Source of the DNA: Verrucomicrobiales bacterium
Lineage (GTDB): Bacteria > Verrucomicrobiota > Verrucomicrobiia > Limisphaerales > SXTU01
Reading direction: 5' to 3'
NCBI GenBank assembly: GCA_005791875.1
Contig: SXTU01000291.1
Coordinates: forward strand, 4,138-68,137
DNA: 64,000 nucleotides
Shown: positions 1,273 to 55,633 of the stretch, piece after piece
Layout: the number at the start of each line of letters is the position of its first letter
Numbering within the stretch: position 1 is the first letter of the stretch
Program-made: the position numbers and the translations under genes
Notes under the pieces: model-generated
The model's input: the letters and a program-made list of their open reading frames with translations, nothing else
What the model was told of the DNA's origin: nothing
The model's database searches: none

Positions 1273-1288
1273 CTCGGACACAAGATTT

Positions 1289-1431
1289 AGAATGACCAAA
1301 GACCAATGACGCAATGCCCAATGAATGCTCAATTTCCAATACCCAATGCCCGGCAAGCGTCTTGCGGCTCCCAGCGCTCCATTGGGCCTTGGTCATTTTT
1401 TGGGCATTGCGTCATTGAGAATTGGTCATTC
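1289..1431. repeat. Heptad-word palindrome, CAATGAC-type words (copy A1)
   Basis: The left arm is gaatgaccaaagaccaatgacgcaatgcccaatgaa... The right arm is ...ttgggcattgcgtcattgagaattggtcattcc, its imperfect reverse complement. It lies between the P1 stop (1436) and the sixA start (1272). Confidence 0.85.
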
Positions 1432-1435
1432 CCCG

Positions 1436-2854
1436 CTACGGCTGCGGCTGAAACACAATCCTGCTGAACGCCCTCGGCGCAAACTCCGCCTTTCCGAAGT
1501 TCGCGCTGCTCGCACGCACGGCCTTCTCTGTCCAGCTTTCCAGCGCAATCGTCAGGCTGCCGCGCCCGGCGAAGAACACGCGGATGTCGCCGGCCTGCAC
1601 CGGCGCGGTCTGCGCGCGGTCGGTGGCGAAGTCCACCTGCCCGATGCGGTCCATGGGTATCTCGATGAAGTTGTCCGCGACTGCGAAGCGCAGCTTGCCG
1701 TCCTTCAGCTCCACCAGGCGGCCTGCGATGGTATCGCGGTTCACCAGGCGACCCACGTCGTTCTTCACGTTGGGCACGAGCGCGGCGACGTTTTCATCGA
1801 GCCGCCCGTCCCACTCGCTGATGCGGAGGTTTGCCAGCCGCATTGGTCCCGAACCCTGATGCACGAGCCGGATGCCGGTGCCCTGGCCGCCGAAGCCCTC
1901 GGTGTCGACCCACTGCTTCGCCAGGACGCCGTTGATGAACACGGTGATGGTCTTCTGCTCGCGGCTGGTCTTGATGCCGATTCGCGCGCGGTTGGTCTGC
2001 TGGAGCTGCGGGATGACGGCCATGCCGAGCTGGCGCACCGGCTCCTTGTGCTTCACGAGCAGGAGCTGCGTGGAGTAGCTATTCAACTGAAGGCTGTAAA
2101 ACCCGCCGAACGGAGGCTCGTCCGCTGTCTGCGCGAGGCGCACGGGCTGGAGCGAATCCGTGTAGAGCGCGATGGCCAGCGCGAACTGCCCCTGCCACGC
2201 GAGGTCGAACTCCAGCGAGGAACTCGGCGGCAGCTTCACGTCGCGCGCGATGGACGCGGGCTGCGTTGCTACAAACGCGCCGTTCACGAAATGCCATTCC
2301 CCGGCAGCGATCACCCCGCCGAGCGCCTTGCCCATCGTCCAGCCTTCCAGCCCGTCCGGCCCGGCGAAGACCGCGCGCGGCGTCGGCCCAGCCGGGCGCA
2401 CGCTGGCGACGCGCGGACGCGGCACCGTCAACGTGCCAGCAAACCACGTCTCCAGCACGAGCTGCTGTTCATTGAGCGACTTGAGGTTGCCGGAGATCTC
2501 GTCGCCGTTGGTGAGGCGGACGAAGCAGAAGTTCGGAGAGTTCGCGGGCGGTGGCAACTGTGCACCGAGGTGGATTTCCGCCAGCGCGGCGGGCTGGAAC
2601 TCAATCGAAGCCGCCGCGTCCGTGTGCCGCCAGCGCAGGCCGGTCGCGGGCGAGATGGACTCAAGCTGGCCGGTGAGAAGGTCGCCGTTGCGGAAGAGGA
2701 GGGCCTGAGGGGTTGAGGCAGAGCCGGCGCCGAGGGTGAGGGCGCTGAGCAGGGCCAGGAGCGTGATGCGTGATGCGTGATGCGTGAATGACGCCGGACA
2801 CCCGCGAGCGACGGCACGCAACACGCAACACGCAACACGCAACACAGCTTTCAT
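1436..2854 (-). CDS. Secreted modular protein, paralog P1 (hypothetical)
   Basis: 472 aa. The ATG at 2854 overlaps the P2 stop (ATGA). The hydrophobic core is ITLLALLSALTLGAGSA. It shares four short modules with P2 and P3 (ETWFAG motif; NxDxxxGxL..DGKL....EIP) flanking a central GLEGW...WxFxNG region that resembles a concanavalin/DUF1080-type jelly roll (weak recall). Confidence 0.7.
   Translation of the reverse strand: MKAVLRVACCVLRAVARGCPASFTHHASRITLLALLSALTLGAGSASTPQALLFRNGDLLTGQLESISPATGLRWRHTDAAASIEFQPAALAEIHLGAQLPPPANSPNFCFVRLTNGDEISGNLKSLNEQQLVLETWFAGTLTVPRPRVASVRPAGPTPRAVFAGPDGLEGWTMGKALGGVIAAGEWHFVNGAFVATQPASIARDVKLPPSSSLEFDLAWQGQFALAIALYTDSLQPVRLAQTADEPPFGGFYSLQLNSYSTQLLLVKHKEPVRQLGMAVIPQLQQTNRARIGIKTSREQKTITVFINGVLAKQWVDTEGFGGQGTGIRLVHQGSGPMRLANLRISEWDGRLDENVAALVPNVKNDVGRLVNRDTIAGRLVELKDGKLRFAVADNFIEIPMDRIGQVDFATDRAQTAPVQAGDIRVFFAGRGSLTIALESWTEKAVRASSANFGKAEFAPRAFSRIVFQPQP
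2761..2845. repeat. Heptad-word palindrome, GCGTGAT / ACACGCA words (copy E1)
   Basis: gcgtgat x3-4, then spacer ..gacgccggacacccgcgagcgac.., then acacgca x4. There is one A:A (or U:U) mismatch per heptad. It lies inside the 5' coding end of P1. Confidence 0.9.
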
Positions 2855-4452
2855 CTCTCGAAAAATTGTTGCAGCTCGGCCCCCATGAACGGGAGGTCCA
2901 GCACCAGCGGTTCACGGCCCGGGTTGAAGCGCAGCATCCGCAGCCAGCGCGCGTCGAGCGCGAGCGGGCCGAAGTGCGGGCTGACGCCGGCAAGCTGCTT
3001 GCCGTCCCAGCGCGGCTGCGTGAACGCGACGGTCTCGCCGCTGCTCAGGTGTGCGTGCGCCTCGCCCGCCGGACGATTCGTTGCGGGCGGAGTGACTGGA
3101 GCGAGGACAACCTGCGTGATCCGGGTGAGGGGAATTTCCAGGCTGCCGGCGGTCGAGGTCAGCGTGAGCTTGCCGTCGCGGATGGCGCGCACGTCGCCCA
3201 ACGCGCGGTCCTGGTTCGCGAGGCGGACGAGATGGCCGGTGAAGTTCGTCGCGACGATTTCTGGCTCGCTGGGGCGGCCGTCCCACGCCGAGACCTTGAC
3301 GCCGCTCAACTGAATTCCGCCCTGGAGCATGTAGAACGAAATGCCCGTCCCCGGCAGTGCCGGGCCGCGCGCGGCAGCGGCGGCGCGAACCGCCTCGGCG
3401 ACGGTCGGCGGCAGATTCGGGTCGAGCGCTGGCACGGCGGGCTTCACTAGGTTCGGGTCGTTCCACTGCTGGATCACGTTGCCGTCCACCACCAGCGTGA
3501 CCGCGCCTGCCAGCAGGTCCGTGCGGATCTCGACACGCATCTTGCGACCCGGCAGCGGCACGGGGATCTGCGCCTGGCCGAGGTGCTGCATTCCGAACTG
3601 GCCCTGCCCGCGCATGAGGTTCACGTAGCCCAGACCGAGGTTGAACTGGTAGCCGCTGGCGGCAAAGTTGAAGCGCTCAACCGCGTCGGTGTAGAGGCTG
3701 AAGTAGAGGTTCAACGCCCCGCTGCTGCCCACCTCGAACTCCACGCGCGACTGCGGGGGGAGCTTGAGGTCGCGGCCCATGAAGGCGTTCGCGCTGCCGG
3801 AGAGCACGCCATCGCGGAACTGCCATGCGGCGGGCGTCGGCCCGGTGGCCCAGCCCTCCAGGCCGTTGGGTCCGTCGTAGAGCGTGGCGAATCCTCGTGC
3901 GAGGAACGCGAGCGACTGCACGCCCGCGCGCGGCGCGCGGAGCTTCCCAGCGAACCACGTCTCCAGCTCGATGTGCGAGGCGTCGAGCGACACGAGGTTG
4001 CCGGTCAGCTCGTCGCCGTTCACGAAGCGGAAGCGGCAGGTGTGGTGCGCGCTGGACTGTGCCGGGGGCGGTGCGGTTTGCGCGAAGCGAATAAGGTGCG
4101 CGTTGTTCGGCAGGAACGCGATGGGCGCAGCGGACGCCGGGTGTTTCCAGCGGATGCCAGCCGGGTCAATCGCCTGCAACGAGCCATGCAACCGGGAGCC
4201 ATCAAGGAACTGAAACACATCTCCATCGGGCGCTGCCGGGCCTGCGAGAGGCGCGAAAATCTGCGCATGGCCGGGCGGGGGAGCAAAAACCTTCGGTGCC
4301 GGGCGAGGGGCGGGAGGTTGGATCAAGTTCTGTGCGCAGAGCGGAAGTGCGGTGGCGAGCAGGAGCGCGGCGAGCAGGAAGTAATTAGTGATTACTGATA
4401 AGTAATTGGTGATCCGGGTCGAGAGCGGGCTGGCATCCGGCTGGTCACTCAT
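2851..4452 (-). CDS. Secreted modular protein, paralog P2 (hypothetical)
   Basis: 533 aa from ATG 4452 (MSDQPDASPLSTRITNYLSVITNYFLLAALLLATALPLCAQ); the track start is 4527. It has the same module order as P1 and P3 (FVNGDELTGNLVSLD...ETWFAG; NGLEGW; NQDRALGDVRAIRDGKL...EIPL). Confidence 0.7.
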   Translation of the reverse strand: MSDQPDASPLSTRITNYLSVITNYFLLAALLLATALPLCAQNLIQPPAPRPAPKVFAPPPGHAQIFAPLAGPAAPDGDVFQFLDGSRLHGSLQAIDPAGIRWKHPASAAPIAFLPNNAHLIRFAQTAPPPAQSSAHHTCRFRFVNGDELTGNLVSLDASHIELETWFAGKLRAPRAGVQSLAFLARGFATLYDGPNGLEGWATGPTPAAWQFRDGVLSGSANAFMGRDLKLPPQSRVEFEVGSSGALNLYFSLYTDAVERFNFAASGYQFNLGLGYVNLMRGQGQFGMQHLGQAQIPVPLPGRKMRVEIRTDLLAGAVTLVVDGNVIQQWNDPNLVKPAVPALDPNLPPTVAEAVRAAAAARGPALPGTGISFYMLQGGIQLSGVKVSAWDGRPSEPEIVATNFTGHLVRLANQDRALGDVRAIRDGKLTLTSTAGSLEIPLTRITQVVLAPVTPPATNRPAGEAHAHLSSGETVAFTQPRWDGKQLAGVSPHFGPLALDARWLRMLRFNPGREPLVLDLPFMGAELQQFFER

Positions 4453-4481
4453 CGCTAAACACTGATCACTTATTACTGAGC
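4379..4481. repeat. Heptad-word palindrome, AT-rich AGTAATT/AGTGATT words (copy F1)
   Basis: The left arm is agtaatt agtgatt actgata agtaatt ggtgatc. The right arm is ggtcactcatcgctaaacactgatcacttattactgagc. The palindrome spans the P2 start codon (4452-4450). Confidence 0.8.
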
Positions 4482-4511
4482 ATTTCTTCACGCGCGCGGG
4501 AATAGAAGCCC

Positions 4512-7241
4512 TCACGGCCCGCCCCATTCATCCACCGGACCGCGCGGCGTGGAGGGGTTGAAACGCAGCGCGCGGATGGACTCCGGCTTGAGCGTCAGCC
4601 GGCCAAACACGGGGCTGACGGCGGTGACCTCGCCCGGCCCCCACTTCTCCAGCGACAGCGTGAGCCGCTCGTTGCGGTGCAGTGTGACCTGGACGCCCTC
4701 GACCTTCGGCAGCTCCGGCGCAGCGTTTACCGGGAAGGCGATAAGCGCCGCGCGCGTCAGGGGAATCTCCAGCTTCGCGCCCGCCGGGTTGAACGCGAGC
4801 TTGCCATCACGAATGCCGTGCAGCGTGCCTGTCGCGCGGTCCTGGTTCACGAACTCCACGACGGCGGTGTCGGGCGGCGGCACTTCCACAAGCTTGTCAG
4901 GATCGGCTCCCGGCGCGCCCAGCGGTTCGCGATCGCGGTCCACGCGGCCGTCCCACGGCGTGATGCGGATGTCACTGACGCGGACGCGGGAGTTGGAGTT
5001 GTAGTTATAGAAGACTACGCCGGTGCCGGGACCGGGCGAGCCCATGCCCTTCCACTCGTGGACCTTCTCGCCGTCGGCCAGCATCGTGGTGATCTCGGTC
5101 TCCGTGTTGACGAGGAAGGTGAGGCGCACCGTGCTCTTGTTGAGCATCTGCGGCACGCGCGCCCCGCTGGAACTGGTGGCACCGGCACCGGAGCGGCGCA
5201 TCGAGTAGATGTAGCCGGAGGACGATGTGTAGAACTGCCAGCCGTCGCTGAAGTCGAACTGCTCCGTGTTGCGCGTGAAGAACGAGAAGCGGAAGAAGGG
5301 CTGGCCCTTCCACGCCATGTCGAACTCGATGCGCGCCTTCGTGGGCAGATTGCACTCGCGCCCGAGCGTGCCCACGGCAGTCCCGTAATACGCGCCGTCG
5401 CGGAAGGTCCACGCGGCGTTCGTGTTCGCGGTGGCGGCGCGGCCGGCGAGCGCGGCCTCTGCGCCGGCGGCCCCGACGACGTTCAGGTTGTTCAACTGCA
5501 ACGCACCGAGCGCGCGGACCCGCGCCTCGGCGAGCGCGTTGGCATGCGCCACCACGAGCGCGCCCATGCCGAGATCCGCCTGCGCCTGCGCAAGCTGCTG
5601 ATCAAGTTCACGCGTCTCGGCCACGCCAGCACCCGCCGCGAGCGTCTGCAAAAGCCGCGCGCCCAACTGCGCGGCCTCGGCCTTCATCAGAGACTTGAAG
5701 CGCGTCTCCTTTGCCTTGTCCCGCGCGACAGCGGCGGCGTCCGTGAAGTCCTCGAACCAACGCGAGAGCGCGCGTTCGGAGGCGACATCCGCGTCCACGG
5801 CGGCGCGCACCAGGTCGGATTTGATGAACTCGCCAGCCGCCGCGGCCTTCTGCGCGGTCTCGACGAACTTCATGATGGCGGCGACTGCGTGCGGCTGGAT
5901 GGCAGCGGGTGCCGCCGCTACTGCCCGCACGCCGCCGAGCAGGTCATAGGTCCGCGTGAGCGCGATGGCTGAAGGGTCGTTCTTCAAATGCGCCAACTCG
6001 CGCAGCAAACGGCTCGTGAGCAGCGCGCCTTCGCGGCGGATGACAGTGCGCTGATCGCTCCCGCCCTCGGCCTGCTTCTCCAAGTCAGCCTTAATGGCCG
6101 GCGCTTTGACCAGGCCGGCCTCGATTGCGAGCAGAACCAAATCGGTCTTCAGGTAGTCGGCCACCGTGGCGGCCAAGCGGGCGCGGGATGCCATCGTGGA
6201 AATCTCGGGCACTGTGGGCTTCTTGTTGAAGGCGGGCGCGGGCGCGGGGTCGCCGGGTGCAAGCTTCGGTGGCGGCAATGGCGGGCGCTCGCCGGGTTGG
6301 GGAAGCTCCTTGAGCTTGCGATCCACTTCCGCCTTCACTGCCTGCGCGGCTAGGTCCACGGCGGACGCTAGCGGAGGCTCGGCGCGTTTCGGTAGGACGC
6401 GGATGGGCAGGACGGGCCGCGGTGGCGCTTTCGGATCAACCGCGTTGGCCGGCTGCTTCGCCGCTGCCTCTTCCATTTCCTTCAGCCGCAATTCCAAAGC
6501 CTGCTTCAAGACGGGTGAGCCTTTCTCGCCGAGCTTCGCTATCTCCTCCTTGAGCTGGATCACGGCTTCCTGCGGCGTCGGCTCCACGACCGGCCGGGCT
6601 GGTGCCGCGAAGCGAATGGCGGGCATGAAATTCACATTGTTGCCGGCGGCATCGAACCCGATTCGGTTCACGGTGGCGGAGCCGGTGCTGACCTTCCACT
6701 CGTCCGCCGCGCGCGGGCCGTCGTAGAGCGCGGACTGGCTGCTGCCGTAGAAAGACAGGCTCGCCAGCCCCGAGCGCTGGCCGCGCAACCGCCCGGCGAA
6801 CCAGGTCTCGATCTCGAAGCTCTCGCCATCGAGCGACAGCAACTGCCCCTCGAACTCGTCGCCGCTGGCGAGCTGCACTCGGCAGACAGGCGCGGAATTG
6901 GTCGGCAGCGCCAGCGCGCGCGCGGGCATGCGGATGCTGTTCAGGTTCGTGGTGGTGAACTCGATGGGCTGCCGGGCGTTGGGATGCCGCCACTTGAGCG
7001 TCTCGCTGTTCAGAGACTCGATCTCCCCGCGCAGGAAGGAGCTGTCGAGGAAGGAGACGGTGGCGGGGGGGAGGTTGGTGGCGGGCAGGTTTGTTGAACC
7101 AGCCAGCAGCGCAAAAAGAAGATAACTTCCAATGTTCAACTTCCAACGCTCAACGTGCGAAGGCGCGCACTTGGACGTTGAACGTTGAACGTTGAGCGTT
7201 GAGCGTTTTCCGACTCCAAGTTGAAGCTTCCTACCGTTCAT
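4512..7241 (-). CDS. Secreted modular protein, paralog P3 (hypothetical), with long Ala/Pro/Lys/Glu-rich insert
   Basis: 909 aa. The ATG at 7241 overlaps the 3' end of the upstream gene by 11 nt. The core is SYLLFALLAGS. It has the same terminal modules as P1 and P2 (LASGDEFEGQLLSLD..ETWFAG; NQDRATGTLHGIRDGKL..EIPL) plus a ~400-aa low-complexity insert after module 2. Confidence 0.7.
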   Translation of the reverse strand: MNGRKLQLGVGKRSTLNVQRSTSKCAPSHVERWKLNIGSYLLFALLAGSTNLPATNLPPATVSFLDSSFLRGEIESLNSETLKWRHPNARQPIEFTTTNLNSIRMPARALALPTNSAPVCRVQLASGDEFEGQLLSLDGESFEIETWFAGRLRGQRSGLASLSFYGSSQSALYDGPRAADEWKVSTGSATVNRIGFDAAGNNVNFMPAIRFAAPARPVVEPTPQEAVIQLKEEIAKLGEKGSPVLKQALELRLKEMEEAAAKQPANAVDPKAPPRPVLPIRVLPKRAEPPLASAVDLAAQAVKAEVDRKLKELPQPGERPPLPPPKLAPGDPAPAPAFNKKPTVPEISTMASRARLAATVADYLKTDLVLLAIEAGLVKAPAIKADLEKQAEGGSDQRTVIRREGALLTSRLLRELAHLKNDPSAIALTRTYDLLGGVRAVAAAPAAIQPHAVAAIMKFVETAQKAAAAGEFIKSDLVRAAVDADVASERALSRWFEDFTDAAAVARDKAKETRFKSLMKAEAAQLGARLLQTLAAGAGVAETRELDQQLAQAQADLGMGALVVAHANALAEARVRALGALQLNNLNVVGAAGAEAALAGRAATANTNAAWTFRDGAYYGTAVGTLGRECNLPTKARIEFDMAWKGQPFFRFSFFTRNTEQFDFSDGWQFYTSSSGYIYSMRRSGAGATSSSGARVPQMLNKSTVRLTFLVNTETEITTMLADGEKVHEWKGMGSPGPGTGVVFYNYNSNSRVRVSDIRITPWDGRVDRDREPLGAPGADPDKLVEVPPPDTAVVEFVNQDRATGTLHGIRDGKLAFNPAGAKLEIPLTRAALIAFPVNAAPELPKVEGVQVTLHRNERLTLSLEKWGPGEVTAVSPVFGRLTLKPESIRALRFNPSTPRGPVDEWGGP
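7127..7207. repeat. Heptad-word palindrome, ACGTTGA words (copy D1)
   Basis: ttccaatgttcaacttccaacgctcaacgtgc, then spacer gaaggcgcgcac, then ttggacgttgaacgttgaacgttgagcgttgagcgtt. It lies inside the 5' coding end of P3. Confidence 0.85.
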
Positions 7242-8271
7242 AAATGGGCAGGAACCGGTAGTTCAACGCCAGCGACAGCAGCGACGCCGCCGTGCCGAAG
7301 GAATTTCCAAACGACCCGTCCCAACTCCCGTCCTTGTTCTGCGTGGCGGCGAGGGACTTGATGTTCGCGCCGTTCCACTTGCGCCACGCGTCCGGCGAGC
7401 TGTGGAAGTAAGCCTGCGCCGCGTAGTAGAGGTAGTATTGCTGGTAGTGCGCGTCGCCAGCGGCGGTCTGGAGATACTGCCACGCGCCCTTGAACTCCGC
7501 CGTGTCCTTCCGTTTCGCCAGCGCCTGGACGAGCACGCCGATGGCGCACCGCGTCGCGTTCGGCCCGCTCGCGCCGGTGTAGCCGTAACCGCCCTCGGGA
7601 GTTTTGCAGCTCGTGAAATACTTGAGGCCCTTCTGAATCGCATCCTCCGGCACCGCGAGGCCCGCGTTGCGCGCGGCGAACATCGCGACCATCTGCGCGC
7701 CACTCACGGTCGTGTCCGCGTCCGAGCTTTCCGGCGAGTAGCGCCAGCCGCCGTGTGGGTTGCGCGCCTGCGAGGCGACGATGAGGTTGATGGCGCGCTG
7801 GAGCGCCGGGCCGAGCCGGGCGTCCTCCACCGCACCGTAGGCTTCTGCTAGCGCGAGGGCACCGAAGCCGTGGTTATACATCGAGGTGCCGATGTAGCCG
7901 GTGTCCTTGTTCTGCTGCGCGAGCAGGGCGTTCAGCCCGCGTTTGATGGCCGACGCGTAAGGGCCCACGTTCGGGTCGTCGCCGTGCGCGAGCATCGCCA
8001 CCACGCACAGGCCGATGACGCCCGGCTGCCGCCCATACACATCCGCCCACGCGCCCTCCGCCGACTGCGACTTGATGAGATACTGCAAGCCCTTCACATA
8101 CATCACGTCAATCGCCGCCGGGCTGGCGTCGGACTTCTCGATGAAGAGCTGTTGGGCGGAGGCTTCGCAGAATGACCAAGGCCCAATGACCAAGGCCCAA
8201 AGAATAACCAATGACCGGAGCGCGGCGTTCACGCTGCAGAAGGTTCCGATCAGCAAAAGGCGCAAGGACAT
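7231..8271 (-). CDS. Prenyltransferase/squalene-oxidase-repeat (alpha/alpha-toroid) family protein, secreted
   Basis: I prefer ATG 8271 (MSLRLLLIG...). The track start, GTG 8334, overlaps the upstream stop as GTGA. Repeated motifs AEGAWAD, PHGGWRY, PEGGYGY and KDGSWDGSFG occur at roughly regular spacing, as in terpenoid-cyclase-like repeats. Confidence 0.65.
   Translation of the reverse strand: MSLRLLLIGTFCSVNAALRSLVILWALVIGPWSFCEASAQQLFIEKSDASPAAIDVMYVKGLQYLIKSQSAEGAWADVYGRQPGVIGLCVVAMLAHGDDPNVGPYASAIKRGLNALLAQQNKDTGYIGTSMYNHGFGALALAEAYGAVEDARLGPALQRAINLIVASQARNPHGGWRYSPESSDADTTVSGAQMVAMFAARNAGLAVPEDAIQKGLKYFTSCKTPEGGYGYTGASGPNATRCAIGVLVQALAKRKDTAEFKGAWQYLQTAAGDAHYQQYYLYYAAQAYFHSSPDAWRKWNGANIKSLAATQNKDGSWDGSFGNSFGTAASLLSLALNYRFLPIYER
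8171..8219. repeat. Single (unpaired) arm of CAATGAC-type heptads inside a CDS
   Basis: aatgacc aaggccc aatgacc aaggccc aaagaat aaccaat gaccgga. It translates as LVILWALVIGPWS within the signal-peptide region of the 7231..8271 gene. Confidence 0.8.
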
Positions 8272-8330
8272 ATTCAGACAGCCGGACGTTGCTGCGGCCT
8301 GAAGGCCGCGCTCCACTGACGCCTTCGCGC

Positions 8331-11300
8331 TCACGGCTTCGCCTCCACGGCCTTGAAGAAGTTCTCCAGCGCCTCGCGGAACTCCGCCGGCACCTGCCGC
8401 GTCACGCCGCTGCCTTTGCCGGTGCGGCGCGCCGCCGCCTCGGCTCCACGCGCGTCGCCAACCGTGCCCGCGCTGGCCTTGTCGGTGTTGCCGCCGTTTT
8501 GATTCGGACCGCCGGGCTGCTGGCCGGGCTTCATGCCGATTTGCGCCTCCTGCTGCGCCATCTGCATCATCATCTCGGCCTCCGCCTGCGCCTGCTGCTG
8601 TTGCTGGCCGTCCTTGGGCTTCTGCCGCTTGGCCTGCTCGTTGATGAGATTGATGAGGTCGGTCAAGTTCAGCAGCGCGTCGTTCTCCGGCTTCTGCGCG
8701 GGATCACCGGTGAGCTTGTCGAAGAGAGCTGACTCCGCGTCGCGCATGCCGTCCTGCGTGTTGAGCAAGAACTCCTTCGCCTCCTCGATGTCGTTGCTCA
8801 TCTGCAATTTGGTCAGGTCGCCGCGCAGCGCACGCTGTTGCTCCCCGACCTTCAGCGCCCCTTCGGCGTAGCGGGGGTTCTGCGCCTTCTCCTCTTCGAG
8901 CAGCATCGTCTGCTGCAACACCCGCATCTCGCCCCCGCGCAGCCGGATCGCCGCCATCAACATCTTGAGCAACTTGTCCTCCTTCGGCTGGCCCTCGCCT
9001 TCGCCTCCGCCGCTTTCCTCCTCCGGCGGCTCCAGCTTCTTCGACCAGCCGGCAAAGCGCTTCGTCCAAGTCGCGAGGTTGCCCATTGCGTCCATCGAGA
9101 TGTTCGCGTCAATCAGCCCGCGCACGCGGTCGAGCTCGTTGGGCGTGTTGACCTCCTTCATCTCCTTGGCGACCTCGCCGTAGTTCGCGCGCTGTGTGCG
9201 GTCGAAGAACCGGCTCATCTCCGCCACGACCTTCTCCGCCTCCACCTTCACGCCGCCTTGGTCGCCGGCCAGCGACGTGTTGATTTTCTTGTAACGCTCC
9301 GGCAGCTCGCTCGGCAGCAGGCCGATGGTCTCGCCCACCACCTTGCCGAGCTGCTCGCCCAGGCCCTTCTCCGACTCCGAAAGTTTCTTCAGCCGCTGTG
9401 ACAGCGTGAGCGCCTGCAAGTTGTCGAGGCCGTCGTTCATCTTCTTCTGGAGCGCCTGCAATTTCTCCAGCGCCTTCTCCTCCGCCTCAAGCGCCTTGGT
9501 CGCCTCGTCCGCGCGGTCCTTTGCCTCGCTGCTCTCCTGCGCTTTTTGGAGCGCTTGCTGCGCGTCCTTCATGTCCCCCTTCGCAAGCGACTTCATCTGC
9601 GCAAGGTTCTGCGTCCACTCGCGGAGCGTCTGCTGCGTGAGCGTCGGGTTGCGCATCGCCTCGCGCACGATGTCCTGACCCTGCTCCGCGATGCGGTCGA
9701 GTTGCGCGGCGTTGCGCGCCTGCTCGTCGGCCTGCTCGCCGGCCTTCTTCGCAGCCTCGTCGGACTTGAGCTTGTCCTCTGGCAATCCCATCAACTCGCG
9801 TGTCGCGGCGGTGATGGCTTCCTCCTTGCGCGTGACTTCCTCGACCTGTGCGAAGAGCGCGTCCAGCTGCTGCCGCACCAACTCTGCATGCTTGGAGAGG
9901 CTGACGATGTTGATGCGATGCGTGACTGACTCCGCCGGCTCGCGGCCCGGGAGGAAGTCCGTGGCCAGACCCTTCACCTCGACGACCGAGTCCGCCGGGA
10001 TGCGCATGACCGTGGGGCTGAACATGAACGTGTTCGTGAAGCGGCGCTCCTGCGCGCCCGTCGCCGACTTCCTGAACTGCGCAATCGCCGGCGTGTTCGT
10101 CGGGTCGAGCGACGCGACAATCTCGGAGGTGACTGCGCCTTCGCGCACGCCGAAGTCATCCGATGCGGAGAACCTCAGCGGCAGCACATCGGTCTCGAGA
10201 ATCGAAACCTCCATGCCGAGGTCGCCGAGGTCCACGCGTGGCGCGCCGTCCTTCATCGGGCGCAAGGCCAGCAGCCAAGGCGCGATGGGCTTCAGTCCGA
10301 ACTCATCCCGCCAATCGAACGTGGCCTGCGACGACGCGTCGAGCTTGAGCGAGCCACTATTGAACTTCTCGCCCGAGAGCAGCAGCGACACCGGCTCGGT
10401 CTTGTCCACCGTCACCTCCGCCGACGCAAGCGGGCGCGTGGCGGTGCCGGCCAGCGTGACGCGGCTGCCTTCGAGCACGGGCAACGTGGCGTTCTGCACG
10501 ACTTGGTTCGTCGCCGGGTATTGCAAGTAAGCCGGGAGTGCGACATTCGCCGCGAGCTGCTTGAGTGCGGGGCGGTGCAACGGCTTCACCGCGATGGTGT
10601 GCGTGGCGTCGCCGAGGCGGACGCGGAGCGAACCGTTCTGCGTCTGGCCGGGGATGGTGAGCTTGGCCGAGCCGTTCTTCACCGGCGCGGAAAGTTTGGA
10701 CTGCAACTCAAAGCGCCCGCTCGCGCTCGCGGGCTTCCAGAACGAGCGGTAAGTCACCTTGGCCACCAGCTCGAACGGCTCACCATGCGGCACGACGAGC
10801 TGCGCCGGCACGTTCTCGAGCGTGATGAACGTGTAGCGCGGAATGCCGGCGACCGGCACCGCCCAACGCTGAAGCGCGTTCCAACCCGCAGCTGGCGCGA
10901 CGGCGAACGCAAGCACCACCGGCACCAGCCCCGCCGCGAGCGCGATGCTCGCGAGCCGCGCGGGCCGGGAGTTCACCACCTCGAGGAAATCAAACTTCGC
11001 CGCGTCCGCCGAGACTTGCCGGATGGCCGCGCGGCAGAGCGCGAGCGACATGTTCTGCGGTCGCTGTTTCTCCTCCGCGAGTTCCACGATGCCCAGCAAC
11101 CGGTCGCCGAGCCGGCGATGCCCGTGCTGCACGACGTTCGACAACGCCCGCAAGTCGCGCCGCTGCCAAATCCAGCTCCGACACCACCGCACCGCAAACC
11201 ACGCCGCACCCGCGAGCCCCGCAAGCAACAGCGCCGTGCGCAGCGCCTTCGGCGTGTCCCCGACACGGTCGCACAGGAAGAGCAGCGCGAACGAAGCTGC

Positions 11301-11420
11301 CAGCGCCGCGACCCCGCCGGCCACCGCGTGCGTCGTCTCCGTCCGCCACAGCGCGCGCTCCAGCGCCGCGAACTGAGCGCGCAACGAGTCAGGCAGGGAG
11401 ATGCGGTTATCGGAGGCCAT
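8331..11420 (-). CDS. Large membrane protein with coiled-coil C-terminal half (DUF4175-like, unverified)
   Basis: 1029 aa from ATG 11420 (MASDNRISLPDS). It has three hydrophobic spans near the N-terminus, a beta-rich middle, and a ~450-aa Glu/Lys/Gln/Ala-rich region ending VPAEFREALENFFKAV. The track fuses it to the upstream gene as one 1285-aa ORF. Confidence 0.65.
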   Translation of the reverse strand: MASDNRISLPDSLRAQFAALERALWRTETTHAVAGGVAALAASFALLFLCDRVGDTPKALRTALLLAGLAGAAWFAVRWCRSWIWQRRDLRALSNVVQHGHRRLGDRLLGIVELAEEKQRPQNMSLALCRAAIRQVSADAAKFDFLEVVNSRPARLASIALAAGLVPVVLAFAVAPAAGWNALQRWAVPVAGIPRYTFITLENVPAQLVVPHGEPFELVAKVTYRSFWKPASASGRFELQSKLSAPVKNGSAKLTIPGQTQNGSLRVRLGDATHTIAVKPLHRPALKQLAANVALPAYLQYPATNQVVQNATLPVLEGSRVTLAGTATRPLASAEVTVDKTEPVSLLLSGEKFNSGSLKLDASSQATFDWRDEFGLKPIAPWLLALRPMKDGAPRVDLGDLGMEVSILETDVLPLRFSASDDFGVREGAVTSEIVASLDPTNTPAIAQFRKSATGAQERRFTNTFMFSPTVMRIPADSVVEVKGLATDFLPGREPAESVTHRINIVSLSKHAELVRQQLDALFAQVEEVTRKEEAITAATRELMGLPEDKLKSDEAAKKAGEQADEQARNAAQLDRIAEQGQDIVREAMRNPTLTQQTLREWTQNLAQMKSLAKGDMKDAQQALQKAQESSEAKDRADEATKALEAEEKALEKLQALQKKMNDGLDNLQALTLSQRLKKLSESEKGLGEQLGKVVGETIGLLPSELPERYKKINTSLAGDQGGVKVEAEKVVAEMSRFFDRTQRANYGEVAKEMKEVNTPNELDRVRGLIDANISMDAMGNLATWTKRFAGWSKKLEPPEEESGGGEGEGQPKEDKLLKMLMAAIRLRGGEMRVLQQTMLLEEEKAQNPRYAEGALKVGEQQRALRGDLTKLQMSNDIEEAKEFLLNTQDGMRDAESALFDKLTGDPAQKPENDALLNLTDLINLINEQAKRQKPKDGQQQQQAQAEAEMMMQMAQQEAQIGMKPGQQPGGPNQNGGNTDKASAGTVGDARGAEAAARRTGKGSGVTRQVPAEFREALENFFKAVEAKP

Positions 11421-11486
11421 TGGAATGTCTGACGGACTGTAACACCCGGTTGCTCCGTCACAATCCCCAAGTTCCCTGAGCCAGCG

Positions 11487-11590
11487 CCCGTGCCGGCGTG
11501 CTTCCAGCCGCCGTCTGCGGGCCACAGCAATTCGAGCGACGCTCAAGCACTCAACCCCCAACACGGCGGCTGGAAGCCGCCGGCACGGGC
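11487..11590. repeat. MITE-like unit with ~28-bp terminal inverted repeats carrying a mini-hairpin
   Basis: gcccgtgccggcgtgcttccagccgccgt ... acggcggctggaagccgccggcacgggc. It sits exactly between the DUF1501-like C-terminus and the next gene start. Confidence 0.85.
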
Positions 11591-12846
11591 CGCATCCCCA
11601 CAGCCCGCGCAGCTTCTCCTTCTCCGTCAGCCCCAGCGGGAATTTCTTCGCATGCGCGTGCGTGGCGATACCAGCGAACTCCCGCAATGCCTCGTGGATG
11701 TGCTCGGGGCGAATCTTCAGGCCCTTCTTCTTGTCCAGCGCAAGCGTCGCCGGGTTCAGGTTCACGCCGAACTGCTTCTCGTCCGTTGCGCCGATGACGC
11801 GGTTGCCCTTGATGCCGGGGGCGAGGAACATCACCGAGCCGATGGACCAGTAGTCTTTGCCGTTGCCCTTGTTGTAAGTCGGCGTGCGGCCCATCTCGCT
11901 CTGGATGACGATGACGAGCTTGTCCCGAATCTTCAGCGCCTCGGCCCGGCGGATGACGTAGGCGATGCCGGCGAGGAACTCGGGGATGAGCTTCATCTGG
12001 TCCACGTCGTTGTTCTGATGGCTGTCGAACTGGCCGATGCTCAGGTTCGCCGAGACGCAGACGCCGGCCTTGAACGACGCCAGCGCAATCTCCGCCTGCT
12101 GCGCGAGCCGCTCCTTGGGCACGTCCTTGGGAATGTGTGGCGTGACGCGCGCCATCGTCTTCGAGTTCACCTGCGCCGCGTAGAGCATGGACTCGGCGGC
12201 TCCGCAGCTCGCGCTGTTCCGCCAGCGCCTGCTCGATGCGCGTGAGCGCGAAGTCCTCGTGGTAGGGCGAGCGCAGGTTGCCCTCGATGTGGTCGGCGTT
12301 CGCGATTTTCTGGAGCGACGGCAGATACGGCACGCGCGACATCGCGACGACGTTGCCCGTGGCCGAGTAGTTGCCGAAGGTGAGGAACGAGAGCGGGCAG
12401 GTCGGCCCCTTCGCGGCGGCCACGAGCGCGGCGAAGGTCGGGTAGGCGAGGCTGTCGAGCTTGCCGGTGGCCATGTAGCGCGCGCCGGGCGCGTGGTTGT
12501 TCACCGAGTAGTCGAGGCCGTTGAACGTGAGCAGCTCGGAGCCGAACTCGGCGTAGAACTCCTCGTTGCTCATGCCGCCAGTCTTGTGCTTGTCCGTCGG
12601 CGCGAATTTGTCCGCGCCTTTCGTGAGGATGTCGCCCTCCTTGTAGAGGTGGTTCATCTCGTTGACGCCCTTGGGGTCAATCAAGTAGGTCGTGTCCCAG
12701 CCGCCCGAGGCGTTGAAGACGATGTAGAACAGCCCCTCGTAAGGAGGCTCCTCCTTCACCGCCGCGCGCAGCAGCGAGGTCATGCCACCGGGGCAGGCGA
12801 AGTCAAGGCCGGTGAGGGCGCAGAGTTTTAGGAAATCACGTCGCAT
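11591..12846 (-). pseudogene. DUF1501-like protein, disrupted by a +1 frame change and lacking its own stop
   Basis: It has a Tat-like start MRRDFLKLCALTG (ATG 12846). About 215 aa sit in one frame (FNASGGWDTTY ... SPYHEDFALTRIEQALAEQRELRS). The protein-like signal then moves to the frame of ORF 8331..12188 (YAAQVNSKTMARV ... QFDSHQNN ... SEMGRTPTYN), with the switch between about 12189 and 12215. Confidence 0.55.
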
Positions 12847-12979: not shown

Positions 12980-13120
12980 ATGCAAACAAGCATTGACCTC
13001 GACGAAGAGCTGCTTGACGAGGTGGCGAAGGCGGAAGGCCTGAACCTCAGGCCCACCCCGTCACGCTGCTGGCGGAGGCGAATCGGAAGCATGACCAATT
13101 ACCCAATGACCAATGAATGA
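12980..13120 (+). pseudogene. VapB-like (DUF2191-type) antitoxin fragment
   Basis: The 46-codon ORF MQTSIDLDEELLDEVAKAEGLN... matches the MxTxIDIDDELLxEA opening of VapB antitoxins. After about 22 aa it degenerates and runs into repeat A2. No toxin gene follows. Confidence 0.3.
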
Positions 13121-13247
13121 CCAATTGCCCAAGCCCAACCGGAGGGCGTCGTTGGGCGTTGACCTTGTGAAAACTCGTGGTTTTCGCATGGCCAGGGAGC
13201 ATTGGGCATTCTTTGGTCATTGAACATTGGGGACTGGTCATTCTCCC
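13091..13247. repeat. Heptad-word palindrome, CAATGAC-type words (copy A2)
   Basis: atgaccaattacccaatgaccaatgaatgaccaattgccc ... attgggcattctttggtcattgaacattggggactggtcattctccc. It ends 1 nt before the eda ATG. Confidence 0.85.
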
Positions 13248-15573: not shown

Positions 15574-15625
15574 GGGCGGGAGAGTGCGGGGGGACGGCGC
15601 AGGCGGCAAGATTGCAGTGGGCCGT

Positions 15626-15695
15626 TCTGCGTGCTGCGTGTTCCGTGCTCGCGTTCGTGGCGTCCGGCGATGAAACACGCAACACGCAACACGCG
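15626..15695. repeat. Heptad-word palindrome, GCGTGNT / ACACGCA words (copy E2)
   Basis: ctgcgtgctgcgtgttccgtgctcgcg ... gaaacacgcaacacgcaacacgcg. The spacer contains gtccggcg, the reverse complement of cgccggac in E1. It lies between the lemA stop and the metF start. Confidence 0.85.
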
Positions 15696-15704
15696 TTCGC
15701 CGCC

Positions 15705-23494: not shown

Positions 23495-23726
23495 GGAAAT
23501 GACCAATGACCCATGTTCAATGTCCAATGAATGACCAAGCCCGAATGACCAATGCTGGTAGGGCACGGTGTCCTCACCGCGCCGGTTGGGCGTTCGTCCG
23601 GTTCGGCGGCGGGCTGGGGATAGACGCGCCCTACCACGCCGCGTCCGAGCGCAAATGGGAGCCCCAAGCCGTCCACTGATCATTGGGCATTCTTTGGTCA
23701 TTGGGAATTGGACATTGGTCATTCCC
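23495..23726. repeat. Heptad-word palindrome, CAATGAC-type words (copy A3) with a foreign element in its spacer
   Basis: The arms are ggaaatgaccaatgacccatgttcaatgtccaatgaatgaccaagcccgaatgaccaatgc and tgatcattgggcattctttggtcattgggaattggacattggtcattccc. The spacer holds the 79-bp element at 23557-23635. Confidence 0.85.
23557..23635. mobile_element. 79-bp TIR element GGTAGGGC...GCGCCCTACC (copy B1), MITE-like
   Basis: It aligns without gaps to 57339-57417 (61 of 79 positions identical by hand count). The termini are ggtagggc(a/g)c and gacgcgccctacc. Confidence 0.8.
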
Positions 23727-26237: not shown

Positions 26238-26827
26238 TCGGCACAGGCCAAAACCACTCCCCAGAACACGCCCAGCCAGTGGCTCAAGTGGCTTGGCACA
26301 ACGTCGAAATCAAACGCCACGCTCGGCGCGCTCAAGCCCACCGAGTCGAACGCGAACTTCCCAATCGCACCCGCCAGCAGCAGCGCTCCGAACATTTGCT
26401 GCCGTCCACCCGCTCGCAGCCAACGCACCGCGAGCCAGCCCAGCAACAGCGCGTTGAAACCAGAAAGTCCGCCGTAGCGCGCCAGCGAACTATCGCAGAG
26501 CAACAGACTCACGCTCAAAACCGCCCCGCCGATAAGCAGCCCACGCCCAATCAAACGCCCACCCGCACGACGCAACGCAGCAGCCAGCAGCGCAAAAATC
26601 AGAGCATCCACGAGCAAGTGTTCCAACGAAAAGTGCGCGAGATGACTCGTCCACAACCGCCACCCCTCTCCCGCCGCCAGCGCGTCCCGATCCAGCAAGC
26701 ACCACGCATGGAATTCCGGATGAACAGTCGCCAGTAATGCGAGCAACACCAGACCACCAACGCCGTGCCGGCAGATTCCCGCCGCCGCGTTGCGCGCGAG
26801 CGGAGCGCGGCGTTCACGCCGCTTCAA
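26132..26827 (-). CDS. rrtA: Rhombosortase (rhomboid-family intramembrane serine protease)
   Basis: GEGWRLWTSHLAHFSLEHLLVDAL (WR..T..H....H motif), YGGLSGFNALL (GxSG serine) and a late SHLSHW histidine. The start is uncertain: TTG 26827 is proposed, and the track ORF extends to 26929 through a repeat. The 3' end overlaps the convergent amidohydrolase by 106 nt. Confidence 0.6.
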   Translation of the reverse strand: MKRRERRAPLARNAAAGICRHGVGGLVLLALLATVHPEFHAWCLLDRDALAAGEGWRLWTSHLAHFSLEHLLVDALIFALLAAALRRAGGRLIGRGLLIGGAVLSVSLLLCDSSLARYGGLSGFNALLLGWLAVRWLRAGGRQQMFGALLLAGAIGKFAFDSVGLSAPSVAFDFDVVPSHLSHWLGVFWGVVLACADQLKNTFSAVRRSIQSRSVAERKSRRSRMRATESA

Positions 26828-26873
26828 CGTGCGAACTACAAGTCGGCTGCGTATTCGCTGCACCACCGTATCT

Positions 26874-26908
26874 CGGACGCGGAAGCGGGCTGAAGCCCGC
26901 GCTCCGTC
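26874..26908. repeat. Mini-hairpin repeat (gcgggc-tgaa-gcccgc core)
   Basis: cggacgcggaagcgggctgaagcccgcgctccgtc, a nested stem. It lies between the rhombotarget stop and the rhombosortase start. Confidence 0.8.
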
Positions 26909-33455: not shown

Positions 33456-33467
33456 TGGGGAAGTAAT

Positions 33468-33547
33468 CAGTGTTCAGTGTTCAGCGTTCGGGGGGCGGTG
33501 GTCAGCAGGTCGCGCTCGGGCAACTGAATGCTGAATACTGAATACTC
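33468..33547. repeat. Heptad-word palindrome, AGTGTTC / GAATACT words (copy C1)
   Basis: cagtgttcagtgttcagcgttc, then spacer gggggg...gggcaact, then gaatgctgaatactgaatactc. The arm mismatches are G:T on the + strand. It lies between an upstream stop (33550) and the VWA start (33455). Confidence 0.9.
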
Positions 33548-33549
33548 TT

Positions 33550-39891: not shown

Positions 39892-40017
39892 CTCCCTCTC
39901 CCTTCCTCGGAGGAGGGGAGAGGGTTGGGGTGAGGGGTTCTGTGCGTCGGCGCAAGTGGCCCCACCCCTCATCCGGCCTGCGGCCACCTTCTCCCCTCCT
40001 CCGAGGAAGGGAGAAGG
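39892..40017. repeat. Nested palindromic repeat (CTCCCTTCCTCGGAGGAGGGGAG core + GGGGTGAGGGG/CCCCACCCCTC)
   Basis: Two inverted copies of a core that is itself self-complementary. When translated it gives PSPxLRGxGE-type low-complexity peptide. It lies upstream of the signal core of the 36292..39879 gene. Confidence 0.8.
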
Positions 40018-52529: not shown

Positions 52530-52713
52530 TCCCGGTCTGGGCTGCTCCTTCAACAGTCTGGGAGGCAACTCGGCTGTCCGGGAAGGCTTCTTGGGCAGTC
52601 CGGGCCATCCGATCGAGGCAAACTCCCATCCAGTCTTGCCAAGGTGTGACCCAGTCGAGGGAAGGTGTGACCCAGTCGGCCAAAGTTGTCATCCGGTCGG
52701 GCCAAGGAATGCT
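52530..52713. repeat. Degenerate ~21-nt tandem array (core CCAGTC...), best five units 52609-52713
   Basis: The units are ccgatcgaggcaaactcccat / ccagtcttgccaaggtgtgac / ccagtcgagggaaggtgtgac / ccagtcggccaaagttgtcat / ccggtcgggccaaggaatgct. Weaker units extend back to about 52530. The array lies in the 450-bp gene-free gap after pilB. Confidence 0.75.
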
Positions 52714-54088: not shown

Positions 54089-54146
54089 GGCGGGAGGTTA
54101 GGAAGCGACGGTGAAGCAGGCCAGTCTGTTTTCAGAGGAGGGGGAA

Positions 54147-54214
54147 AGTGTTCAGTGTTCAGTGTTCAGCGGGGCGTGCGGAGGCAGGGCAACTTTCTGA
54201 ACACTGAACACTGC
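54147..54214. repeat. Heptad-word palindrome, AGTGTTC / GAACACT words (copy C2)
   Basis: agtgttc x3, then spacer ggggcgtgcggaggcagggcaactttc, then ctgaacactgaacactgc. The spacer ends resemble those of C1. It fills the gap between the ceramidase-like stop and the hydrolase start. Confidence 0.9.
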
Positions 54215-55633
54215 TTACTTCCCCTTCAGCTCCCCCAGCATCTCCAGCAGCGCCGTGACGATCTTCGTCGAGGCCTGCTCCTCCAACCGGTTCGTTCCCA
54301 TCCACGTCTCGTAACCGCCCAGGCGATGGTGCGCGGGCGTGGGCAGGTAGCCGTAGTAGCCGTTGGCAATCGAGTGCGTGAAGCTCGGCTTGAAGGGATT
54401 GCGCGCCTTCAGTTCCAGTCCCGTCTCCACAAACGTCTCGCACGGAATCCCCGTGAGGCCCACGTCGCCGACGCGCAGCGCCTGAATCGGAATCGCCAGC
54501 CGCGCCGGATACTCCGCCATGCCCAGCGTGCGCTCGGCGTAAATCTCCTCCAGCGTCGCCGGGCGCGGCAGGCTCTTCGGGCGGCCGAGCACTTCCTTCG
54601 CGCGGGCGATTTGCTCGGGCGTCGGGCGGCGTGTGCCGACTTCGAGTTCGCGCAACTGCCCGCCCAGCGGAACCCAGTCGCGATACTGGATGCCTTGCAG
54701 CGCCTTGAACGCGACTGCCGCCACGTCATTGGCCACGAGTTGCATCCGCGCGTAAGGCTCGTCGCGCGTGCCAGGCTTGGAGAAATCAATGTTGTTGATG
54801 TTGCCGCTCGTGCCATTGGCCAGCATCGCGACGAACGCCGGGCGCTGCCGGTCCGCGCCGAGGAGTTGCTGGAGCCGGTCGCAGAACAGCGCGAAGTAAT
54901 CCGCCGAGATGTGCCCGTTGCCGACGCCGCCGACGTAGTGCAGCGAGTAGTTCGCCAGCACCGCGATGGGCCGGCCCTGGGGCGACTGCACGGACACGAG
55001 GCAGATTTCCGGGTCGGTCGGGCCGGAGGGTCGGTCGAGGCTTGGGCTGGCGCGCCCCGGGTTCATCTTCACGAGGTCGTTCGTGCTGCCGAAGGGATTC
55101 ACCGGCATCGTGCCGGGCTTGAGGAACCACCGGCGGTTGAAGACATGGTTCGGTTCCTGCCCCGTCGCCCAGCCGATGCGCGCGGGCGCGAGGTTGTTCA
55201 TCGCGCGGCGCACGCCGTCTGCGATGCGCCGCGCGACGAACTGCTGATACTCATCGAGCGGCGTGTGGATGCGGAAGCGGTTCGTGCCCAGCGCGCTTGT
55301 CGCCGAGTGCGTGTGCGTCGAGGACATGAAGAGATTCGCGCCGGGCAGTCCGGTCTCCTCCGTCACCAGCCGCCGCGCCGCGTCATAGACTTCCCGCGAG
55401 GCCCCGAGCAAGTCGCACACGACGATGGCCAGCCGCGTCTCGCCGTTGTCCAGCGCGAGGCAGCGCGCGTGCAGCTCGTCGTGGATGTGCGTGGAGGGAA
55501 TAGGGTGGAAGCCGCCGATGATGCCGCCGCCGAGCGGGGGCGTGAGGTTGCTCAAGGCCGCGCCGGCACGGAGGATTTGGGGCTTGTCCGCCGCAGTGAC
55601 GGGCAGGGCGATGAGGGAGAGAAACAAAATCAT
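54215..55633 (-). CDS. Neutral/alkaline ceramidase-like hydrolase
   Basis: ATG 55633 (MILFLSLIALPVTAA). LGGGIIGGFHPIPSTHIHDELHARCLALDNGETRLAIVVCDLLG and SSTHTHSA resemble the ceramidase_alk N-domain (from memory). Confidence 0.6.
   Translation of the reverse strand: MILFLSLIALPVTAADKPQILRAGAALSNLTPPLGGGIIGGFHPIPSTHIHDELHARCLALDNGETRLAIVVCDLLGASREVYDAARRLVTEETGLPGANLFMSSTHTHSATSALGTNRFRIHTPLDEYQQFVARRIADGVRRAMNNLAPARIGWATGQEPNHVFNRRWFLKPGTMPVNPFGSTNDLVKMNPGRASPSLDRPSGPTDPEICLVSVQSPQGRPIAVLANYSLHYVGGVGNGHISADYFALFCDRLQQLLGADRQRPAFVAMLANGTSGNINNIDFSKPGTRDEPYARMQLVANDVAAVAFKALQGIQYRDWVPLGGQLRELEVGTRRPTPEQIARAKEVLGRPKSLPRPATLEEIYAERTLGMAEYPARLAIPIQALRVGDVGLTGIPCETFVETGLELKARNPFKPSFTHSIANGYYGYLPTPAHHRLGGYETWMGTNRLEEQASTKIVTALLEMLGELKGK

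Follow-up and report, generated by a model that had tools for sequence, protein, structure and literature searches.

Heptanucleotide inverted repeats resembling cyanobacterial STRR sequences probably lie in frame in the signal-peptide leaders of a Limisphaerales operon

Short tandemly repeated repetitive (STRR) sequences have, to our knowledge, been known in cyanobacteria since 1990 and have been left without explanation; one of them, STRR2, was reportedly given by Mazel et al. in 1990 as TTGGTCA. Between the cistrons hupS and hupL, such 7-bp repeats form hairpins whose function is unknown, and a contribution to transcript stability or to translational coupling has been proposed (PMC2670836). 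Here, we describe elements of similar architecture in a stretch of 64,000 nt (referred to below as the window) from a freshwater Verrucomicrobium of the order Limisphaerales with 66% G+C (assembly GCA_005791875.1, contig SXTU01000291.1, positions 4,138 to 68,137). Three of these elements are situated in one operon, at the 5′ ends of the paralogous genes P1, P2 and P3, between the start codon and the hydrophobic core of a putative signal peptide. We assign a rough probability of 0.6 to the following reading: the elements are STRR-like heptad repeats of a lineage-wide class, tolerated in frame in cleavable signal-peptide leaders, and are not dedicated switches.

The likeness to cyanobacterial STRR sequences extends to the tandem 7-nt units, the many dispersed copies and the hairpins between cistrons. 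In addition, the peptide encoded by the TTGGTCA/AATGACC sub-family matches open reading frames (ORFs) of filamentous cyanobacteria, a comparison made for this sub-family of units alone. In contrast to the STRR sequences, however, the host is a Verrucomicrobium and not a heterocystous cyanobacterium, many different units coexist (GTGTTGC, CAGTGTT, AACGTTC, TCACTAA, CAGCGGT, CAACTTT), and some elements appear to be read through in signal peptides, where they are visibly constrained in frame. Repetitive extragenic palindromes (REPs) and bacterial interspersed mosaic elements (BIMEs) are likewise short, imperfect and numerous palindromes found just after stop codons and between cistrons, and REPs are thought to stabilise the upstream mRNA. 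Unlike the elements described here, REPs have a family consensus, are extragenic and untranslated, and do not contain tandem heptads; REPs are associated with RAYT transposases. Contingency loci such as Neisseria opa, whose CTCTT repeat lies in the signal-peptide region, and E. coli K1 neuO (AAGACTC) share with our leaders a non-triplet unit in the 5′ coding region, where slippage by one unit shifts the frame. The heptanucleotide switch of neuO comprises 3–53 uninterrupted units, most commonly 20, and is OFF in 65.6% of 64 complete genomes (PMC13001214), whereas the leaders analyzed here contain 3–5 interrupted units set in inverted repeats, and every assembly compared is in frame with a usable start. 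Finally, MITEs (miniature inverted-repeat transposable elements) and Rickettsia palindromic elements (RPEs) are known to be fused in frame to ORFs, and the Yersinia element YPAL/RU-2 forms part of a signal peptide (PMC2229807). Our elements resemble RPEs and coding MITEs in being palindromic, in frame, free of stops, located in a permissive part of the protein and patchily distributed among orthologs. They differ in being built from short heptads, and a conserved consensus of 100–150 bp, terminal inverted repeats or target-site duplications were not recognized by eye. Further, the insertions concentrate in a presumably cleavable leader, directly following overlapping stop and start codons, and not in surface loops of the mature protein. 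In general, heptanucleotide repeats are the commonest class of long simple sequence repeats in many bacteria (PMC4679880).

The operon comprises five co-directional genes on the minus strand in the order PT-P3-P2-P1-SixA (Table 1). P1, P2 and P3 are paralogs with identities of 32% and 24%. A Pfam search of the three proteins returned zero matches, and the confident core of an AlphaFold model of P2 is predicted to form a beta-sandwich of the concanavalin/CBM66/galectin type. Along PT-P3-P2-P1, each downstream cistron starts within the end of the upstream gene, the overlap being ATGA, GTGA/ATG..TGA or ATG..TAG. A first-pass annotation of this DNA had described a heptad palindrome ahead of the hydrophobic core in all three paralogs, and had interpreted the repeats as candidate switches. 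Its anatomical part is correct with respect to the paralogy and to the arms of P1 and P3, but the palindrome of P2 proved to be only degenerate.

In P1, the start codon ATG (2854-2852) overlaps the stop codon of P2 (2853-2851) as ATGA (2854-2851), exactly as previously annotated. The two arms of the palindrome, both tandem arrays with 100% matches according to Tandem Repeats Finder (TRF), form an inverted repeat of 26 nt with 88% complementarity, and the element folds with −52.8 kcal/mol (z = −3.0). Its 3′ arm supplies the sole basic residue directly ahead of the hydrophobic core, the maximum 11-residue Kyte-Doolittle window of which reaches 2.26. The last canonical start codon in frame is a TTG at codon 12, within the 5′ arm; consequently, loop and 3′ arm must be translated. 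The claim that neither P1 nor P2 contains an in-frame ATG, GTG or TTG between 3′ arm and core was confirmed. In P3, the arms are 71–83% complementary and the fold is again more stable than that of shuffled sequences (z = −2.7).

The element of P2 deviates most. Its arms of 33 nt are only 73% complementary, the fold is no better than that of shuffled sequences (z = −1.2; 28 of 200 shuffles are equally stable), and TRF makes no call for a 7-nt periodicity. As in P3, the arms are interrupted. The P2 palindrome is a degenerate member of the heptad class, and an LITNYF arm homologous to its 3′ arm occurs in many orthologs. Four canonical start codons share the frame of P2, namely ATG 4527, GTG 4515-4513 (forming GTGA with the stop codon of P3), GTG 4491-4489 and ATG 4452-4450. 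Thus, ATG 4452 is not the only canonical start of this gene, as had been assumed, and since the other three are located 5′ of the palindrome, the whole palindrome with both arms falls inside the ORF. The P2 start, ATG 4527 or GTG 4515, thus overlaps the end of P3 (stop codon 4514-4512). The gene frame of the P2 leader in the window is free of stop triplets, whereas its two alternative frames together contain 11. At the end of P3, covering the codons for D-E-W, the window (4524-4531, ATGAATGG) and the orthologs carry two ATGs which are 4 nt apart and in different frames.

Approximately 35 loci with the order PT-P3-P2-P1-SixA were obtained from scans of genomes and metagenomes and from single-protein look-ups; homologs of P2 were restricted to metagenome-assembled genomes (MAGs) of Limisphaerales/Pedosphaera (Verrucomicrobiota). 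The P2-P1 junction shows the ATGA overlap and an open P1 frame at every locus displayed. Measured from the overlapping ATG to a conserved FRNGD motif, the 23 distinct P1 leaders range from 96 to 345 nt. All 23 lengths are multiples of three, and the leaders contain no in-frame stop but one to three stops in each of the other frames. For P2, the leader continues in frame from the second ATG of the conserved ATGAATGG at 31 of 33 loci, and the two exceptions, L005 (−7 nt) and L009 (−1 nt), are open and in frame from the first ATG, 4 nt upstream. In some P2 orthologs, L006 being one example, the stretch from the 5′ arm to the hydrophobic core contains no canonical start; hence, translation must begin upstream of the entire palindrome in these cases. 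A further observation comes from L073, whose P1 5′ arm (GTGATGC)n is perfectly complementary to the 3′ arm, with the exception of the lone copy in which TGA would be in frame and which reads GTGTTCC instead. In the window, all copies in P1 are GTGTTGC, at the expense of one U-U mismatch per unit. The changed copy of L073 is the most direct sign of a coding constraint and indicates that selection on the frame overrides pairing. Judged from these frames, translation through the palindromes appears well supported, beyond the evidence on which the first-pass annotation had placed them inside the translated sequence between start and core.

The relatives also document a rapid turnover of the leaders. 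P1 lacks any insert in L010-L013 and starts with an ordinary signal peptide of about 30 amino acids; the same holds for P3 in L014, L017 and L023, where an ordinary signal peptide of about 30 amino acids begins at the same ATG. In L017, P1 retains only the 5′ arm. The P1 leaders of other relatives consist of other heptads or have further repeat families nested in them, and still stay in frame. The mature P2 proteins of L073 and L074 are at least 90% identical to that of the window, yet their leaders are entirely different, and strains with at least 97% identity in the mature coding DNA show in-frame indels of 9 and 159 nt.

A census of heptad repeats was performed using codon-shuffled sequence as a control for period 7, and covered the 64-kb window and the fetched related loci. 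The window contains at least ten heptad palindromes. Period-7 tracts were found 11 times in the window vs. 0 times in the control and 77 times in the orthologous loci vs. 6 times in the control, while periods 8–12 yielded no tract in the window and almost none overall. TRF calls a period of 7 at 2761-2787, 2815-2845, 7171-7207, 15674-15694, 33467-33546 and 54147-54213. Nine of ten elements begin 1–31 nt past the stop of an upstream gene with the same orientation; the tenth is found in a divergent intergenic region. Most elements fold with z-scores from −2.7 to −8.4, the extreme being the element at 1286-1435 (−74.7 kcal/mol, z = −8.4). Units recur between unrelated sites: GTGTTGC is common to P1 and 15622-15697, CAGTGTT to 33461-33548 and 54143-54219, and AATGACC/TTGGTCA units occur at five sites of the window. 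A search for two consecutive TTGGTCA units with at most three mismatches gave 22 matches vs. 2.2 expected. Judged from the window, the elements form a class spread through the whole genome. Outside the operon, the elements are untranslated and often contain stops in all frames. As identical types of element are present in untranslated spacers, they are not devices dedicated to P1–P3. All elements of the window are located at gene boundaries except for one tract: at 31677-31719 (minus strand), a lone (AATCGGC)x4.7 array on the coding strand, without an inverted partner, is found in frame inside a DUF1549-like gene and would represent a heptad tract translated within a mature protein.

Table 1. 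Positions of the operon genes, the leader elements and further heptad elements in the window. A slash in the core rows marks the probable cleavage site.
Feature	Position	Strand	Remarks
P1 5′ arm, (GTGTTGC)x4.4	2815..2845	minus	translated VLRVACCVLR
P1 loop	2788..2814	minus	G+C-rich, between both arms
P1 3′ arm, (TCACGCA)x3.9	2761..2787	minus	translated FTHHASRIT
Hydrophobic core of P1 with probable cleavage region, ITLLALLSALTLGAGSA / STPQ	2717..2767	minus	from translation; cleavage site inferred
P2 5′ arm, degenerate (AGTAATA / AGTGATC / AGTGTTT)	4445..4477	minus	translated SVISDQCLAMS
P2 3′ arm (TCACCAA TTACTTA TCAGTAA TCACTAA TTACTT)	4380..4412	minus	translated ITNYLSVITNY
Hydrophobic core of P2 with probable cleavage region, FLLAALLLATALPLCA / QNL	4333..4380	minus	from translation and hydropathy
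P3 5′ arm, (AACGCTC / AACGTTC)x5.3	7171..7207	minus	93% matches by TRF; translated RSTLNVQRSTS
P3 3′ arm (GAGCGTT GGAAGTT GAACATT GGAAGTT)	7124..7154	minus	translated VERWKLNIG
Hydrophobic core of P3 with probable cleavage region, SYLLFALLAGSTNLPA / TNLPPA	7080..7127	minus	from translation and hydropathy
PT gene	stop 7233-7231	minus	prenyltransferase/squalene-cyclase-like
P3 gene	4512..7241	minus	909 aa; ATG 7241-7239 inside last codons of PT
P2 gene	2851..4527	minus	558 aa counted from ATG 4527
P1 gene	1436..2854	minus	472 aa; secreted paralog
SixA-like phosphatase gene	778-1272	minus	directly follows P1 in operon order
(AATGACC)n...(GGTCATT)n hairpin	1286..1435	minus	untranslated; 3 nt past P1 stop, spacer before SixA-like gene; inverted repeat of 51 nt
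(TTGGTCA)-type arm	8171..8200	minus	gives the PT signal peptide its hydrophobic core (RSLVILWALVIGPWSF)
(AATGACC)n...(GGTCATT)n	13091..13222	plus	untranslated; divergent intergenic region
(GTGTTGC)n...(GCAGCAC)n	15622..15697	minus	untranslated; unit as in P1; 8 nt past upstream stop
(AATGACC)n...(TTGGTCA)n	23498..23723	minus	untranslated; stops in all frames
(TATTCAG)n...(CTGAACA)n	33461..33548	minus	untranslated; 2 nt past stop codon; stops in all three frames
(CAGTGTT)n...(AACACTG)n	54143..54219	minus	untranslated; adjoins upstream stop codon; fold z = −7.2

Based on these observations, we propose the following course of events. Elements accumulate directly 3′ of stop codons in this Limisphaerales genome and, owing to the overlap of the cistrons, an element landing "after the stop" falls inside the next gene. 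There it would be read as an extension of the n-region of the signal peptide, ahead of the hydrophobic core. The leader encoded by the palindrome would be expected to be removed by signal peptidase, in which case the mature protein would stay unchanged and the insertion could be neutral. Selection retains only variants with lengths that are multiples of three and without in-frame stops, even at the cost of hairpin complementarity. Turnover is fast: elements are inserted or replaced, other repeats nest within them, arms are lost and, occasionally, one unit slips. A hairpin of −40 to −50 kcal/mol, 4–30 nt past the start codon, would probably block independent 30S initiation, and expression of each downstream cistron would then require ribosomes that come from the cistron before it. 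Hairpin-modulated translational coupling, which had been suggested earlier as a fallback to switching, would be a plausible by-product.

Several points weigh against this proposal. The relatives are not independent samples, and the counts of in-frame leaders overstate the number of independent events accordingly. The start of translation and the export of P1–P3 are deduced from the DNA: the hydrophobic windows of the leaders reach 2.0–2.8 (Kyte-Doolittle), A-x-A-like cleavage sites were recognized by eye only, and the putative n-regions are unusually long (29–49 amino acids). Moreover, the arms stay complementary across differing units, which could mean selection for the hairpin and not neutrality. 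In an alignment of five P1-type sequences, three pairs show double changes at the variable position of the heptad; these fit either selection on the stem or templated repair from arm to arm. The strict position right after stop codons hints at a role, for instance in 3′-end protection or coupling. Finally, a mobile or "selfish" nature of the elements, for which no transposase was identified, would follow from their patchy distribution; units and loops differ between the copies, and neither terminal inverted repeats nor target-site duplications were evident among them by eye, no systematic search having been made.

Some of these points would be expected if the hairpins were adaptive intercistronic RNA structures, acting in coupling or in differential stability or processing of the mRNA, with translation of the repeats being a mere consequence of overlapping cistrons. 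The hairpins begin 4–30 nt past starts which overlap the upstream stop, nine of the ten elements of the window directly follow a stop codon, complementarity is maintained across unit sequences with some double changes, and similar roles have been proposed for the STRR hairpins between hupS and hupL (PMC2670836). Nevertheless, we consider this explanation unlikely, as the leaders show no mark of selection specific to the mRNA: neither an excess of G-U pairs nor a more stable sense strand was found, and for P2 leaders the antisense strand is the more stable one in 26 of 28 cases. Several orthologs have intact genes without a hairpin or with a single arm, the P2 hairpin is no better than shuffled sequence, and the coding constraint seems to override pairing, as in the changed repeat copy of L073. 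A search of Rfam gave zero family matches anywhere in the window, and a scan for terminators detected no terminator-like sites at the palindromes, which also lack a terminator-like U tract.

According to the first-pass annotation, the tracts are slipped-strand contingency loci in which gain or loss of a heptad toggles each paralog and thereby allows combinatorial expression. A 7-nt unit in the 5′ coding sequence, as in neuO, and copy numbers varying among species (3, 4 or 5) are in line with this idea, and so is a real one-unit difference between strains at least 97% identical: L005 contains three copies of TCAACTT vs. four in L007 and L076, together with one single-nucleotide polymorphism over 230 nt. 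Slippage by one unit (7 nt) does occur, therefore. However, L005 is the only 7-nt variant among the compared alleles, and its frame is open from the ATG 4 nt upstream. Comparing tract lengths across the relatives revealed no out-of-frame allele without a usable start. With 23 of 23 P1 leaders and 31 of 33 P2 loci in frame, and both exceptions in frame with the alternative ATG, the pattern differs from that of neuO, for which about two thirds of the genomes are OFF. In addition, the tracts are short (3–5 units; 3.9–5.3 copies by TRF in P1 and P3) and often interrupted, and the same elements are present in untranslated spacers as well. Tract lengths are identical in independent assemblies of the same species, both for the window, L072 and four further members of its cluster, and for L007, L076, L077 and L081. 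Thus, the compared sequences give no sign of ON/OFF switching as a maintained property, and we judge it very unlikely that the repeats serve as switches of the paralogs.

In some members of the cluster, the called protein lacks the leader and sets in at the mature domain (MDVFQ..., MFQFLDG...). They were considered as candidates for phase-OFF alleles but were rejected, since their leader DNA is in frame in every case (L074-L082); these truncated gene calls are artefacts of the gene callers. More generally, public gene calls frequently place the start within the palindrome or at the beginning of the mature domain, giving proteins of 455–458 instead of 500–562 amino acids, although the DNA is open and in frame from the overlapping start. 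The annotation of start codons of these genes in public records is systematically unreliable. Furthermore, several MAG records containing the operon (among L003, L007-L009, L012, L016 and L017) have Klebsiella pneumoniae, 'uncultured Klebsiella sp.' or Akkermansia muciniphila as their title and are evidently mislabelled.

That the palindromes are untranslated, with non-canonical start codons past the 3′ arms and merely accidental open frames upstream, is hardly credible: high G+C does lengthen accidental ORFs, gene callers often choose downstream starts and the frame through the untranslated element 15622-15697 is also open, but leader lengths between 96 and 345 nt would not all be multiples of three, in-frame stops would not be absent despite many off-frame TAA, TGA and TAG triplets in A+T-rich units, the lone TGA-bearing copy due in frame would not be the one specifically mutated, and insert-free orthologs would not begin their normal signal peptides at that same overlapping ATG.

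Tolerance in the leader, as favored above, leaves room for a more active contribution of the repeats to export. Complementary codons are opposite in hydropathy; consequently, in a palindrome of the type CCAA.../...TTGG, hydrophilic and basic residues are encoded first and hydrophobic ones after them, and a first arm of the AATGACC type also contains ATG codons. In the P3 gene of seven relatives, the 3′ arm itself encodes the sole hydrophobic core ahead of the mature domain (HWSLVILWSLVIGHWSFA followed by Q), and the same applies to PT in most relatives including the window (KSSKSQIPNSK...WSLVFLWSLGFGIWSFA). The arms encoding such cores are of the TTGGTCA, TTGGAGC or TTGGGAT type, while the 5′ arm provides ATG or GTG codons and the hydrophilic basic stretch; in several orthologs, the repeats encode the entire signal peptide. 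Cores encoded by arms have a hydropathy of 1.9–2.8, similar to ordinary cores. More distant relatives possess ordinary signal peptides of 20–30 amino acids at the PT and P3 positions. Heptad palindromes might therefore supply this lineage with export signals ready for use, in that selfish repeats repeatedly replaced and rebuilt signal peptides and could confer export on new proteins, an idea suggested by the sequences which we regard as tentative and, on balance, somewhat less likely than not. A scan of all fetched loci for other families with tract-encoded N termini returned almost only this operon. Likewise, a database search with the leader peptide of (AATGACC)n/(TTGGTCA)n detected no long protein carrying it N-terminally; the hits were ORFs of only 42–84 amino acids, mostly cyanobacterial.

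The peptide of (TTGGTCA)n (...LVIGHWS...) has dozens of matches among short hypothetical ORFs of Nostoc, Anabaena, Nodularia, Aphanizomenon, Coleofasciculus, Microcoleus and Symploca, and additionally in Nibricoccus (Verrucomicrobiota) and Mucilaginibacter (Bacteroidota). Matches across these genera imply that the same heptamer array is present in distant phyla, and they link the TTGGTCA unit with STRR-like arrays of cyanobacteria.

Further repeats were noticed in the window. A second family of inverted repeats (GGAGCGCGGCGTTCACGC...GCGGCCTGAAGGCCGCGCTCC) has four matches vs. 0.7 expected (8217-8314, 26801-26906 and 39804-39821); one copy is situated in the PT leader, and another one has been inserted into the P2 leader of L012 without breaking the frame (positions 1050-1230 of this locus). 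A third family (CCCTCTCCC...GGGGAGAGGG) occurs at 39894-40017 with arms of 94% complementarity. In relatives, it is nested in frame within heptad-palindrome leaders, with the translation ...SPSPFAEQGERAGVRG..., namely in the P1 leaders of L006, L027 and L029 and in the PT leaders of L002, L016 and L047. A perfect inverted repeat of 24 nt with a spacing of 10 nt (AGGAGCACGGACGCCCACGTCCGC / GCGGACGTGGGCGTCCGTGCTCCT) lies at 40671-40728 and has no heptad structure. At 52630-52707, the spacer between convergent genes contains a tandem repeat with a unit of 21 nt (3.7 copies, 74% matches). Finally, an ORF of 1285 amino acids, counted from the first ATG, covers 8331-12188 on the minus strand; only about 150 amino acids at its N terminus match DUF1501, namely the C-terminal portion of the profile (positions 247-348 of 390), which suggests a fused gene, a truncated gene or a missed gene boundary.

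Taken together, it is the combination that is new: heptad inverted repeats in Verrucomicrobiota, located after overlapping stop and start codons, read as leaders and under measurable selection on the frame. Finding a repeat with a non-triplet unit in 5′ coding sequence does not suffice to call phase variation, and relatives offer a cheap test. The elements explain the systematic mis-annotation of start codons in these genomes, and the operon is an unusually clean natural experiment in which selection on the frame can be set against hairpin complementarity and the turnover rate of the elements can be followed. An STRR-like architecture with at least one apparently identical unit in Verrucomicrobiota suggests that the phenomenon is not specific to cyanobacteria. 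For the proteins of this operon, the arm-encoded cores suggest that repeats may serve as building material of signal peptides.

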